This document shows positions 1,007-6,009 of a stretch of 64,000 nt of DNA, piece after piece (the stretch's first letter is position 1; the number at the start of each line of letters is the position of its first letter). The position numbers and the translations under genes are program-made. A model generated the notes under the pieces. The model was not told where the DNA came from. It saw nothing but the letters and a program-made list of their open reading frames with translations, and ran no database searches. Origin of the DNA: Planctomycetota bacterium (GTDB lineage Bacteria > Planctomycetota > UBA1135 > UBA2386); assembly GCA_965228735.1 (NCBI GenBank), contig OZ245838.1, positions 5,600,001 to 5,664,000 of the forward strand. Direction: 5' to 3'.

Positions 1007-1246
1007 ATGACCGACCAGAAGAAGATCGTCGTCTACAGCGGTGCCGGTTGACCGGCGTGCACCATGGTGAAGGAGTTCCTCACCAAGAAGGGCCTGGAGT
1101 TCGAGGTCAAGGACGTCCACAACGACGCCGATGCGCAGAGCGACATGGTCGAGATGGGCATCATGTCGATCCCGGTGACGCGCATCGACGGCGGTGAGCC
1201 GATCGTCGGCGCGGACTACGCGAAGATCGAAGCCCAGCTGGCCTGA
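1007..1246 (+). CDS. Glutaredoxin/NrdH-like protein with probable selenocysteine (UPAC motif)
   Basis: ATG at 1007 gives MTDQKKIVVYSGAG-TGA(1049-1051)-PACTMVKEFLTKKGLEFEVKDV...MSIPVTRIDG..IVG. This is a glutaredoxin pattern with TGA at the first Cys of CxxC. Confidence 0.9.
1065..1085 (+). promoter_or_regulatory. Candidate bacterial SECIS hairpin
   Basis: TGGTG-A-AGG-[AGTT]-CCT-CACCA. The loop starts 22 nt after the UGA and has G at its second position. Confidence 0.7.
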
Positions 1247-1955: not shown

Positions 1956-2369
1956 TCAGCGCGCGAGCATGCGGGGCAGGATGTCGCTGAGGCTCAGGAT
2001 GCCGACGACCTCGGTGCCGCGCAGCACGGGCACGCGTCGCACGCCCGACATCCGCATCAGGTTGACACAGTCGAGCACGTTCGCCGTCGCCGGCACGCAG
2101 ATCGCCGGATGGGTCGCGGCGTCGGCGACCGCGAGCTGATCGAGGATCGCGGTGTCGTGCGCGGCGACGAGGTTGACGATGTCCTTGCTCGTGAGGATGC
2201 CGGGCAGGTCCGCAGCCGTGCGGCCGGGGACGAGCAGGGCGCGGACACCTTGCCGCACCATGTGGTCGCCGGCGGCGCGCAGCTCGTCGGTCGGCTGCGC
2301 CCACTGCAGGTCGGTCGTCATCAGCTCCTCGGCGCGGAGCTCCGTGAGGTCGAGTTGGGTCGTGGTCAT
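1956..2369 (-). CDS. CBS domain pair protein
   Basis: Two CBS repeats (LPGILTSKDIV; RRVPV..VVGILSLSDIL). The start overlaps the FapA stop (ATGA). Confidence 0.88.
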   Translation of the reverse strand: MTTTQLDLTELRAEELMTTDLQWAQPTDELRAAGDHMVRQGVRALLVPGRTAADLPGILTSKDIVNLVAAHDTAILDQLAVADAATHPAICVPATANVLDCVNLMRMSGVRRVPVLRGTEVVGILSLSDILPRMLAR

Positions 2370-3667
2370 GGCAGCAGTCGCCGCACGATCGTGCGGCTCT
2401 CTTGGTCGAAGTGGAACGTGCACGGGCCGAGCTCGTGGTCGGGTCGCAGCTCAGCGCCGCCGAAGCGGATCACGACCCCCGGATGGCAGGCCGTGTGAAC
2501 CTGGATCTCGGCTTCCGCGAGCAGGACGGCGCGTTGTCGGCGAACGCGCAGGCGGGCGTCGCTCTCGCGGTCGGCCGCGCGAACGGCCGCGCGCAGGGTC
2601 TTGCCGCCGCGGTTGCCGGTCTTCCGAGCGTTGCGAGCGAGCCGCGATGCCTTCGCGGTCTCGCGGGCCGCGGCGACTCGTTCGGCCACGGGTTCACCGA
2701 CGGCGAGCAGGGTCGTGGTCCCGGACGGGCAGCCGGCCGTGCCGACGACGATGCGGCGCTGTGCCCGCAGCTCGCCACCACGCACCGACGCGCGGCCGCG
2801 CTCGACATGGATCGTGTCCGCCGTGATGCGAGCCTGATGAGCCTGGTCCGCGATCTCGACGTCGCCCCGAGCCGTGATGCGTGCCGCGGTCGCGTGGCGG
2901 CAGGCGACGTCCGCGCCGGCCTGCACGACGCTGTCGCCGAGGATCCCGTGCTGCACGTGCGCTGCGCCGCCGGCGCGGATCTGGCCGTTCTCGACGGAAC
3001 CGTGCACGACGACGTCGCCGCTCGCGTCGGCGAGGAAGCCGCGCACGATGTCGCCCGTCACGATGAGCGTGCCGTTGCTGTGCAGGTTGCCGCCCGCGTA
3101 GTCGACGTCGCCGCGGTGCACGTGCAGCGGGGTCACGTCGACGAGGTCGCTCGTCCACAGCACGACGCCGTCACGGGCCGCGACGAGCGTGTCACCCCGG
3201 CGTTCGAGCCCTTCGCCGATGTGGCGGCCATCGGGGCGGCCGGCGCGCGGCGGGAGGGGCTCGCCTCGCACCGTGTGACCCGGGGTGCCGGATGTCGGCG
3301 ACCGGACGATCGCGACGGTGTCGCCGACGGTCACCGGTCGCAGCGCGTTCCGCTCGCGGAAGTCGATCGTCTCGTCGTCGGCGGTCCGGCCGGCCTGCAG
3401 GTCCTTCTCGAGGCGGCTTTCGATGCAGCCGTCGGTCCCGTCGACGGGCGCGATGCCGTGGGCGATCGCGATCGCCGCGCCGGTCGCGGGCTCCTGCAGC
3501 CGTTCGGCCAGGGCCGTGAGGGCGTCCTCGTCGACGCCGCGTTCGACGCCGGCGGCCGTCAGCGCCGCCCGAACGTCGGTCAACGCAGCGACCGCGCCGC
3601 GGTCAACGCGCACCTGCGCCACGAGTCCGTCGTCGGAGATCGTGACGTGCAGGGCGGCGTTGGTCAT
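2366..3667 (-). CDS. FapA (DUF342) family flagellar assembly protein
   Basis: V.ISDDGL.A, GIAPVDGTDG, IDFRE, G.PG.TVRGE.LPP..G and GDVDY..GNL, followed by beta-helix repeats. Confidence 0.85.
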   Translation of the reverse strand: MTNAALHVTISDDGLVAQVRVDRGAVAALTDVRAALTAAGVERGVDEDALTALAERLQEPATGAAIAIAHGIAPVDGTDGCIESRLEKDLQAGRTADDETIDFRERNALRPVTVGDTVAIVRSPTSGTPGHTVRGEPLPPRAGRPDGRHIGEGLERRGDTLVAARDGVVLWTSDLVDVTPLHVHRGDVDYAGGNLHSNGTLIVTGDIVRGFLADASGDVVVHGSVENGQIRAGGAAHVQHGILGDSVVQAGADVACRHATAARITARGDVEIADQAHQARITADTIHVERGRASVRGGELRAQRRIVVGTAGCPSGTTTLLAVGEPVAERVAAARETAKASRLARNARKTGNRGGKTLRAAVRAADRESDARLRVRRQRAVLLAEAEIQVHTACHPGVVIRFGGAELRPDHELGPCTFHFDQESRTIVRRLLP

Positions 3668-3691
3668 GGGCGGTGGATCCCGTCATTGAGA

Positions 3692-3720
3692 CCATCGTCT
3701 GGCGCGAATCGTGGCTTGAG
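3692..3720 (-). promoter_or_regulatory. Sigma28 (FliA)-like promoter of fapA-CBS
   Basis: CTCAAG-N15-GACGATGG, 24 nt upstream of the fapA ATG. Confidence 0.5.
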
Positions 3721-3742
3721 GCACTACCATGCGCGCCTCTCG

Positions 3743-4522
3743 ATGCTCCGAATCCTCGTTGTCGTGGCCGCGGCCGTGCTCTCGGGCTGTGCCGGTTTCT
3801 TCCCCCAGTCCGCGCAGGTGACGCCGCAGCGGCCGACGTTCTCCTCCAACACCGCCACCACGGCCGAGGGCACCCTCGAGCTCGAGGCCGGCGGTGCGAT
3901 CGATCCGGGTGATTCGATCGACACGCCGCTCGTCGCGAAGTGGGGCACAGGTCCCGGTACCGAGCTGTTCGCCGGTTGGTCGCCGCTGCAGTATCTCGAA
4001 CGCCCCGGGCCCGACGGGCTCGGCGTGTCGGACCTCGTGCTCGGCACGCGCCATCGCTTCATCGAGGCAGGCGATGGCACGCCGTCGATGGCCGTGCAGC
4101 TCGCGACCAAGCTGCCGTCGGGCGACAGTTCGGAGGGCCTGTCCACCGATCAGATCGACTTCAACCTCGCGGCGATCCTGACGCAGACGTTCGGCAGCCT
4201 CGAGGCGACGGTCTACTACAACGCGGGCTTCCTCGGCCAGGGCGTCGGCGACCCCAACCTGCAGCACACGCTCGCGCTCGCGGCCGGGCTGCCCATCAAC
4301 GATCGCATCGGCGTGTTCGGTGAACTCACCGGGATCATCGAGCACGAGCGCAGCCTCGAGGAGTACTACTTCATCGGCGGCGCGACCTACTCGAGCGAGC
4401 CCGGCGTGATGTTCGACCTCGGTGCGCGGATCGGTCTCAACGACGACGCGGCCGACTTCGCGCTGCTGTTCGGCTTCACGACGAACTTCGGGCCCGCGAG
4501 CTCTTGGGGCGGCGGCGAGTAG
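3743..4522 (+). CDS. Outer-membrane beta-barrel 'transporter' (MetA-pathway/phenol-degradation-like family)
   Basis: Signal peptide or lipobox LSGC, RPTFS...T...G.LELE, G.SD..LG.R.RF, KLPSG and terminal amphipathic strands. Confidence 0.75.
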   Translation: MLRILVVVAAAVLSGCAGFFPQSAQVTPQRPTFSSNTATTAEGTLELEAGGAIDPGDSIDTPLVAKWGTGPGTELFAGWSPLQYLERPGPDGLGVSDLVLGTRHRFIEAGDGTPSMAVQLATKLPSGDSSEGLSTDQIDFNLAAILTQTFGSLEATVYYNAGFLGQGVGDPNLQHTLALAAGLPINDRIGVFGELTGIIEHERSLEEYYFIGGATYSSEPGVMFDLGARIGLNDDAADFALLFGFTTNFGPASSWGGGE

Positions 4523-4531
4523 TCGCCGAGG

Positions 4532-5431
4532 TCACGCGAGACGGTCGACGGCGAGCTGCATCGTCTGCGTGTGGACGGTGACGACGTCGCCGAGGTCGCG
4601 GCCGTACCCGCCGGCGATCGTGATGGCGACCGGCAGACCGCGCGAGCGACACGCGTCGAGCACCATCTCGTCGCGGGCGCGCAGGCCGGCGAACGTGAGC
4701 TTCATCTTGCCGATGCGGTCGCGTTCGTGCGGATCGGCGCCCGCGAGGTAGATCGCGAGGTCGGCGTCGGCGCGGTCGATCGCGGTGCGCAGGCCGTCCT
4801 CGAGCTCCGCGAGGTAGATCACGTCGCCCGTGCCGTTCGGCAGCTGGATGTCGAGGTCCGAGCGCTTCGAGAACTTGGGGTAGCCCGACATGCCGTGGAT
4901 CGAGAACGCGAAAATCGAGGCGTCGTCCTGCACGAGCTCGGCCGTCCCGTCGCCCTGGTGGACGTCGCAGTCGATGATGATCGCGCGCCGGATCGCACCT
5001 TCCCGTTGGAGTGTGCGCACCGCGACGACCGCGTCGTTGAACACGCAATAGCCCGCGCCGCGATCGGCGGCCGCGTGGTGGGTGCCGCCGCCGAGATAGG
5101 CCGCGATCCCGTCCGTCAGCGCGGCTCGCGTCGTGGCGAGCGTCGCGCCGACCGAACGGCGGCTCCGCTCGACGAGCTCGGGCGACCACGGCAGGCCGAT
5201 GCGGCGTTGCTCGAGCGGCGTCAGGTCGCCGGTGAGCACGCGCTCGACGTAGTTGGCGGTGTGCGCCAGTCGCAGCTGATCCGGCGTCGCCGCCGGCGCT
5301 ACTTCGCAGTGGCCGTTCGCCGGCAGGCCGAGCTCTTCGACGCGTTCGCGCAGGCGGCGGTACTTCGAGAGCGGAAAGAAGTGGCCGTCCGGCAGCGGGA
5401 TCGGGAACGCGTCCGTCGTGAAGATCCGCAT
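4532..5431 (-). CDS. Histone deacetylase family protein
   Basis: H.FP..KY, GGTHHA, GYCVFND, DCDVHQGDGT, AGADPH and GGY motifs. Confidence 0.93.
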   Translation of the reverse strand: MRIFTTDAFPIPLPDGHFFPLSKYRRLRERVEELGLPANGHCEVAPAATPDQLRLAHTANYVERVLTGDLTPLEQRRIGLPWSPELVERSRRSVGATLATTRAALTDGIAAYLGGGTHHAAADRGAGYCVFNDAVVAVRTLQREGAIRRAIIIDCDVHQGDGTAELVQDDASIFAFSIHGMSGYPKFSKRSDLDIQLPNGTGDVIYLAELEDGLRTAIDRADADLAIYLAGADPHERDRIGKMKLTFAGLRARDEMVLDACRSRGLPVAITIAGGYGRDLGDVVTVHTQTMQLAVDRLA

Positions 5432-6009
5432 CACGACTCGTGGTCGCGCGCGTCGTCCAGACCGATGCGCTCGGCGCGGGCGCGATAGGTCGCCGGCGGT
5501 TGCACGGCCTTGTCCCGCCACCAGGCGCGATGGTCGGGTGCGCCCTCCGGCAGCCCGTTCACGTACCCGATGCGCGCGTCGGGAATGCTGTCGCAGTACG
5601 GCAGATACGGCTTGAGGTCGAGCACGGGCGTGCCGTCGAGCAGATCGTGATCCGCGATGTGCAGCACCCGCTTGTCGCGGCGCATCAACCGCACGGCGGA
5701 CAACCCGATCGGGTTGGGCCGCTGAGGCGCGCGCGTCGCGAACACGCCGCGCTTCTTGTCGTCGCGCGGCGGCTGCACCACGAGCGGCCGCCCGCGCGCG
5801 TGGTGGCACCAGAACACGACCCACAGATGGCTGAACCCGTCGAGGTCACCGAGTCCGTTCTGGTAGTCCTGGTGCACGACGATCTCACCCGTCGCACCGC
5901 GCCCGAGCCCGCTCTGCCGCGGCGCCTCGTGATGCACGGTGGCGTCGCAGCGGACGATCGCGATGGCGTCGAGCGGTGGGGTGGCGGGGCTGGGCGAACG
6001 GTCGGGCAC
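5431..6009 (-). CDS. tsaA: tRNA (m6t6A37) methyltransferase TrmO/TsaA
   Basis: PRQ, L.GFSHLWVVF.CH, GVFATRAP.RPNPIGLS and DLLDGTPVLDLKPY motifs. Confidence 0.92.
   Translation of the reverse strand: MPDRSPSPATPPLDAIAIVRCDATVHHEAPRQSGLGRGATGEIVVHQDYQNGLGDLDGFSHLWVVFWCHHARGRPLVVQPPRDDKKRGVFATRAPQRPNPIGLSAVRLMRRDKRVLHIADHDLLDGTPVLDLKPYLPYCDSIPDARIGYVNGLPEGAPDHRAWWRDKAVQPPATYRARAERIGLDDARDHES

Follow-up and report, generated by a model that had tools for sequence, protein, structure and literature searches.

Does a small redoxin gene of a planctomycete contain a selenocysteine codon that gene callers mistake for a stop, and if so, what kind of enzyme does the gene encode? The window, that is, the whole stretch of DNA that was analyzed, comprises 64,000 nucleotides of contig OZ245838.1 (assembly GCA_965228735.1), and positions are counted from its first letter. 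A mechanical open reading frame scan begins the redoxin gene at 1064 and yields a product of 60 amino acids. The original prediction moved the start to an ATG at 1007, said to be in frame and to supply a missing first strand, and proposed that the only obstacle, a TGA placed exactly at the nucleophilic cysteine and followed by P-A-C, is read as selenocysteine.

We found that positions 1007-1246 of the forward (+) strand form a single frame of 79 codons, with TGA 1049-1051 as its sole interruption when TGA is translated as U. From the reading frame, a match to PF00462 and a structure model, this is a predicted glutaredoxin-fold (YruB/cGrx1-like) selenoprotein gene of 79 residues. The in-frame UGA (1049-1051, +) is codon 15, the predicted selenocysteine and attacking residue of a U-x-x-C motif. 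It occupies the first cysteine position of a glutaredoxin fold and is followed by P-A-C18, as predicted. Cys18 (1058-1060, +), the predicted resolving cysteine, was invariant in 27/27 aligned sequences. So was Pro56 (1172-1174, +), a conserved proline opposite the active site that we take to be the cis-proline of the thioredoxin fold. The full form scored 50.9 bits against PF00462 with U scored as C (residues 7-62, profile positions 1-57; cut-off 22.9), and the short form from the scan scored 30.0 bits, with profile positions 1-13 missing. No signal peptide was seen by eye, so the protein is predicted to be cytoplasmic.

An assembly error does not account for the TGA, because contigs from four of four sequencing runs (four studies) cover 900-1400 without a single differing letter; the contigs are nearly identical, and the source of this DNA may be among them. 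TGC or TGT at codon 15 was sought in them, and all four runs had TGA. A search of 650-1400 for sigma-70 promoter and terminator consensus sequences found none.

The segment before the TGA behaves as coding sequence. Codons 1-14 (1007-1048, +), which gene callers skip, encode strand beta-1 (residues 7-11 of the model), the strand that the earlier start was expected to restore. We compared these codons with those of nine relatives and counted 7, 9 and 37 differences at codon positions 1, 2 and 3, respectively, per 126 sites each. In the 42 nucleotides upstream of the ATG, the same nine relatives differed at 96, 93 and 86 sites by phase. This pattern of differences by codon position, unlike that of the upstream 42 nucleotides, indicates that the segment is coding and under purifying selection. 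Homologs lacking this segment would have counted against the prediction; instead they retain it.

We found that the TGA is conserved among close homologs. Related genomes were defined as those of the same family and order as this genome (41, this genome included). A strong match was present in nine of them (this genome counted), each with one TGA, and seven others had only weak matches, to other glutaredoxins. Together with three further GTDB records, the nine genomes gave 12 distinct close homologs with 47-85% identity; L038 and L042, being duplicates of L022 and L026, added nothing to this count. One candidate homolog, L043, was dropped as a spurious match of 25 residues. In all 12 distinct close homologs, codon 15 is TGA and the start Met lies 14 codons upstream of it. 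The five true homologs in named GTDB records are all from Planctomycetota metagenome-assembled genomes, and the NCBI names among the protein matches agree.

More distant homologs have Cys where this redoxin has UGA. In a sample of 400 genomes from the phylum, 21 genomes gave matches with an E value of 1e-8 or below. Of the 23 matches in all, eight carry TGA in the position of the first Cys, and the remaining 15 are free of stops. Two more TGA copies, in L058 and L059, adjoin Cys copies: in these two genomes of one genus there are three tandem glutaredoxin-like genes, and the motif opens with TGA in one copy and with Cys in the other two. Such tandem copies are a natural, built-in comparison of the Sec and Cys forms. 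L037 (G019:C13 near 70344-70493), a longer glutaredoxin-like frame of another kind with U-T-S-C, also has a TGA and was kept out of the alignments.

The host has the machinery to decode UGA as selenocysteine. The original prediction called for a search for selA, selB, selC and selD. In this genome (G000; 7.19 Mb in one contig, 93% complete), selA (454 bits), selB (337 bits) and selD (367 bits) each scored above the curated cut-off, and a tRNA-Sec with anticodon TCA was found. The selD gene has one in-frame TGA of its own, in a U-A-A-K motif. selA was above cut-off in all 41 related genomes.

A hairpin had been predicted with its loop 22 nt after the UGA, and we found it within the coding sequence at 1065-1085 (+). 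It has 8 pairs, one bulged A and a 4-nt loop, AGUU (1074-1077), 22 nt past the UGA, with an energy of about -9.9 kcal/mol. The available text of PMC13188914 gives criteria for bacterial SECIS elements (loop of 3-9 nt, stem of 4-16 bp, G within the first two loop positions, spacing of 16-37 nt, energy of -7.5 or below), and the predicted hairpin falls within each of these ranges. By itself the hairpin of this gene is not beyond chance (z of -0.5 to -1.8 against shuffles; p 0.10 against synonymous recodings). When a comparable filter was applied to 209 candidate TGAs of this genome, which is 69% GC, 132 of them passed, so the test is weak on its own.

The family comparison was more informative. 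Over the same 11 codons, the mean z against synonymous recodings was -1.95 for the 21 TGA genes, compared to -0.21 for the 14 Cys genes, one of which (in L058) reached -1.89. A Mann-Whitney test of hairpin stability gave p 4e-6, a value that overstates the difference because the compared genes are related. A loop G was present in 20/21 TGA genes, compared to 5/14 Cys genes. Covariation was divided over two pairing registers, with 74% and 79% of cells paired. One register had compensatory changes at 4/7 pairs, a level reached by 0/500 shuffles, and the other at 2/7; slid controls came close behind in both (0.162 vs 0.180 and 0.208 vs 0.213). Covariation therefore gives modest support for the predicted SECIS hairpin. 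At the level of sequence, the support for it is the comparison of TGA and Cys genes across the family and not single-gene statistics.

We next consider what the protein is. An AlphaFold2 model, made from the alignment of 27 sequences, had a pLDDT of 87.6 and places the active site at the opening of helix 1. cGrx1 (7C10) ranked first among the PDB matches in both sequence (E 1e-14) and fold (TM 0.89, rmsd 1.0, 43% identity). The next-closest structures were BC3987 (3ZIJ/3ZIT; TM 0.81-0.83) and NrdH-redoxins (0.80-0.83). No NCBIfam model reached its cut-off. The best were TIGR02196 (YruB; 63 bits against a cut-off of 88.55) and TIGR02194 (NrdH-redoxin; 44.5 against 85.75), and UXX-star models scored far below (35.2 against 66, 18.6 against 72).

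These scores argue against several identities. By its score, the redoxin falls outside the YruB family (TIGR02196). NrdH-redoxins are characterized, in the portion of PMC3720550 available, by a C-[VMI]-Q-C motif and an nrdHIEF operon; we rejected this identity on the score, the UPAC motif and the lack of ribonucleotide reductase neighbors. More generally, BC3987 of Bacillus cereus, Cp9-type thioredoxins and NrdH-redoxins are YruB-like small redoxins that have a similar fold but use Cys where this redoxin has UPAC, and the redoxin gene, unlike those systems, lies outside any nrdHIEF or TrxR-Prx operon. UXX-star selenoproteins (NF041212, NF041114, NF041211, NF047338) resemble it in having a small glutaredoxin fold with Sec first in the motif. 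That identity was also rejected: the scores are far under cut-off, the redoxin has UxxC rather than UxxT, and only one Sec is predicted in it. The terminal TGA (1244-1246, +) was ruled out as another Sec codon because the corresponding codon is TAA or TAG in 7/12 close homologs and TGA in 5/12. The terminal TGA is the true stop, and the protein is not a two-Sec UXX-star.

The closest known system is cGrx1 of Clostridium (Alkaliphilus) oremlandii (7C10, 7C12, 7C13), a selenoprotein in its native form, its motif being U(C)PXC, according to the accessible part of PMC7642778. The redoxin is like cGrx1, with its native Sec13, in the placement of U-P-x-C, the fold and the approximate size. The motifs differ, UPAC in this redoxin and UGAC in most relatives compared to UPHC in cGrx1. 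So do the hosts, a planctomycete with terminal oxidases and a clostridial anaerobe. According to the sections seen of PMC13188914 and PMC9312934, the UxxC glutaredoxin (PF00462) is an experimentally verified selenoprotein family, and PMC1794560, as far as its available text goes, already counted it in 2006. These sources and cGrx1 agree with the premise of the original prediction that UxxC selenoproteins of the thioredoxin fold are known. Like the catalogued Sec-glutaredoxins, the redoxin is above the PF00462 cut-off and has a UxxC motif. The catalogued hosts, in what was available of the sources, are Geobacter, Alkaliphilus and Moorella, whereas this host is a planctomycete; the string 'planctomycet' is absent from the two selenoprotein reviews (PMC13188914, PMC9312934). 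The redoxin is thus an ordinary instance of a kind of selenoprotein on which laboratory work already exists. It is also a second natural Sec-redoxin close to that of C. oremlandii. A literature search, with most subscription journals outside its coverage, found no paper on this redoxin subfamily or on a selenoprotein-rich planctomycete.

UGA codon 15 is very likely decoded as selenocysteine. Our main reading, to which we give a probability of roughly 0.88, is that the gene encodes a small disulfide reductase with Sec15, likely cytoplasmic and more likely recharged by thioredoxin reductase than by glutathione. By the established bacterial pathway, SelB bearing Sec-tRNA would bind the hairpin 22 nt 3' of the UGA, and Sec would be inserted at codon 15. 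By analogy with CxxC chemistry and with the C. oremlandii homolog, Sec15 would attack a substrate disulfide, Cys18 would resolve the mixed bond to leave a selenenyl-sulfide, and a reductase would then restore the redoxin.

The identity of that reductase is a separate matter. Glutathione synthetase was found in 4/41 genomes and in none of the eight relatives that carry the redoxin gene (these relatives are 80-94% complete, and the search was for the separate synthetase, not fused GshAB). Thioredoxin reductase was found in 40/41 genomes, including 7/8 of those relatives; its presence is not specific because it is so widespread. The text available of PMC3720550 describes Cp9, a relative of BC3987, as passing electrons from thioredoxin reductase to peroxiredoxin. 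Based on the synthetase in 0/8 and the reductase in 7/8 relatives, and on the Cp9 precedent, we favor recharging by thioredoxin reductase, which seems somewhat more probable than the other routes combined. Recharging by glutathione is possible and has perhaps one chance in three, and recharging by another thiol is improbable.

This genome itself has GshB, a GCS2-family ligase close by, and a glutathione reductase above cut-off. The presence of GshB in only 4/41 related genomes suggests that the glutathione system is patchy or acquired. The glutathione cluster of this genome (G000:C1 415900-422800) includes the GCS2 ligase, GshB, a monothiol CGFS glutaredoxin and a CPYC protein. Glutathione dependence of the redoxin in this lineage is doubtful. 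Of the original claim of a selenocysteine glutaredoxin, the predicted Sec in U-P-A-C and the glutaredoxin fold are supported, and the word glutaredoxin should be taken as the name of a fold. As to the substrate, our best guess, a tentative one, is the cytoplasmic peroxiredoxins; several peroxiredoxins of this genome likewise contain UGA.

The alternative that survives best accepts the same selenoprotein and gives it a different role: as a glutaredoxin in the strict, glutathione-dependent sense, it would recharge the Sec-MsrA of the genome, like Grx1 and MsrA of C. oremlandii. The available portions of PMC7642778 and PMC4479559 describe cGrx1 (Sec13) as the proposed reducer of Sec-MsrA and as itself reduced by glutathione. 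The parallel is tempting because the genome's MsrA, whose catalytic site includes an in-frame TGA, has as its best PDB match the C. oremlandii MsrA, including that of 7C13, an entry that also contains the Grx1 chain matched by the redoxin. However, all 12 copies of the planctomycete Sec-MsrA have a hydrophobic leader, and 11/12 have a lipoprotein-type cysteine (both judged by eye). Sec-MsrA is therefore probably exported, and the redoxin has no leader. TGA-containing MsrA occurs in 12/41 related genomes, and its co-occurrence with the redoxin is not significant (4/9 genomes with the redoxin compared to 8/32 without; Fisher p 0.41). Genes for glutathione synthesis and reduction are present in this genome, but the synthetase was absent from all eight redoxin-carrying relatives searched, another difference from the cGrx1 system. 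We consider this alternative unlikely.

The Sec-MsrA genes (L068/L145, G000:C1 near 5365793, and L171-L181) are of the C. oremlandii type, including the C-terminal region, and carry the lipoprotein-type leader.

A second alternative, that the TGA is a real stop and the gene is either a pseudogene or the source of a protein of 59-60 residues begun at ATG 1064 or GTG 1067, is very improbable. All 48 matches in a collection of 5.8 billion proteins are indeed annotated as 58-60 amino acids, but a protein of that form would lack beta-1 and both active-site residues. The GTG at codon 21 is kept in 11/12 close homologs, where it falls in the hairpin stem, and Met20, the start chosen by the scan, is present in 1/12. 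The gene is patchy (9/41 related genomes), yet the same TGA is retained over 47-85% identity, with codons upstream of it under purifying selection. A third alternative, that UGA is read as Trp, Gly or Cys through an altered code or leaky readthrough, is just as improbable: TGA terminates ordinary genes here (including the redoxin gene itself, Cys-MsrA and the monothiol glutaredoxin), tRNA-Sec is the only TCA-anticodon tRNA among the 67 called, and the UGA codon aligns with an invariant Cys.

With selenocysteine at codon 15 as the preferred reading, the same 48 database matches illustrate the truncation by gene callers that had been anticipated. None is a full-length entry, since all are 58-60 amino acids. 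The subfamily, present in the searched databases only as such fragments without an active site, would be corrected to a full selenoenzyme. Fused longer forms of the redoxin were found among none of 10 candidates, a weak indication that they do not exist.

The neighborhood of the gene did not point to a partner. Among 14 close-homolog loci (12 distinct), the only genomes to share neighbors were two of the same genus. When 58 flanking frames, drawn from 19 loci, were scanned with Pfam, one thioredoxin and the tandem glutaredoxins of L059 came up, and no frame matched ribonucleotide reductase, thioredoxin reductase, peroxiredoxin or MsrA. Convergent with the redoxin gene is a gene of the thiopurine S-methyltransferase (TPMT) family (1256-1909, -; below the TIGR03840 cut-off). 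A link to selenium detoxification through this gene was rejected because it is not a conserved neighbor. The genes at 1956-6009 are ordinary, encoding a CBS-domain protein, a FapA-family protein, a histone-deacetylase-family protein and a TrmO-like methyltransferase.

What deserves following up is the wider selenoproteome of the host. A crude codon-bias scan of the genome gave 220 in-frame TGA candidates, and the redoxin gene ranked second among those that passed the hairpin filter. We chose 60 other candidates by eye and scanned them with Pfam and NCBIfam; the counts that follow cover these 60 of the 220, and conservation in relatives was checked for MsrA among them. A family match spans or begins at the TGA at 27/60 sites, which correspond to 25 genes, two with two sites. 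The matched types include thioredoxin-like, peroxiredoxin, AhpD, SelW-like, ArsC-like, deiodinase-like, metal-binding, MsrA and SelD proteins. With the redoxin gene, there are at least 26 predicted selenoprotein genes with family support. Another 13/60 sites (12 genes) are selenoprotein-like by motif and leader with no spanning match, which would bring the total to perhaps about 38. The remaining 20/60 sites are gene junctions or noise.

For comparison, PMC13188914 gives record selenoproteomes of 57 and 63 genes and states that aerobic bacteria rarely retain selenoproteins, and the accessible text of PMC4807772 reports Sec machinery in four planctomycetes, with six putative selenoproteins in one. 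Two full-length genes for heme-copper oxidase subunit I are present in this genome, from which we infer that the host respires oxygen. A broader proposal is that an uncatalogued, glutathione-independent Sec redoxin feeds electrons to an unusually large selenoproteome (26 genes, or about 38 if look-alikes are counted) in a planctomycete lineage that respires oxygen and has selA in 41/41 sampled genomes. This is conceivable, although we hold it at below even odds. If true, a large aerobic selenoproteome would contradict the view of the 2026 review that aerobes rarely keep selenoproteins. With terminal oxidases and dozens of predicted selenoproteins, this planctomycete would be a test case for why Sec is retained under oxygen.

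Many of the selenoprotein candidates (L112-L169) have export leaders by eye. Three other TGA frames (L118, L157, L137) had no family match. L129 and L133 (G000:C1 near 5872224 and 3065085) encode FG-GAP repeat proteins with an in-frame TGA just before a Cys and a similar stretch after it, and neither had a family match across the TGA. L114 and L121 (G000:C1 1929-2561) are parts of an exported protein with two TGAs and two similar domains. Three paralogs, L113, L149 and L159 (G000:C1 near 4855623, 3484699 and 7087946), have a leader peptide and a conserved H-P-L-G-C-T-U. They had no Pfam or NCBIfam match and are possibly an uncatalogued CxU selenoprotein family.
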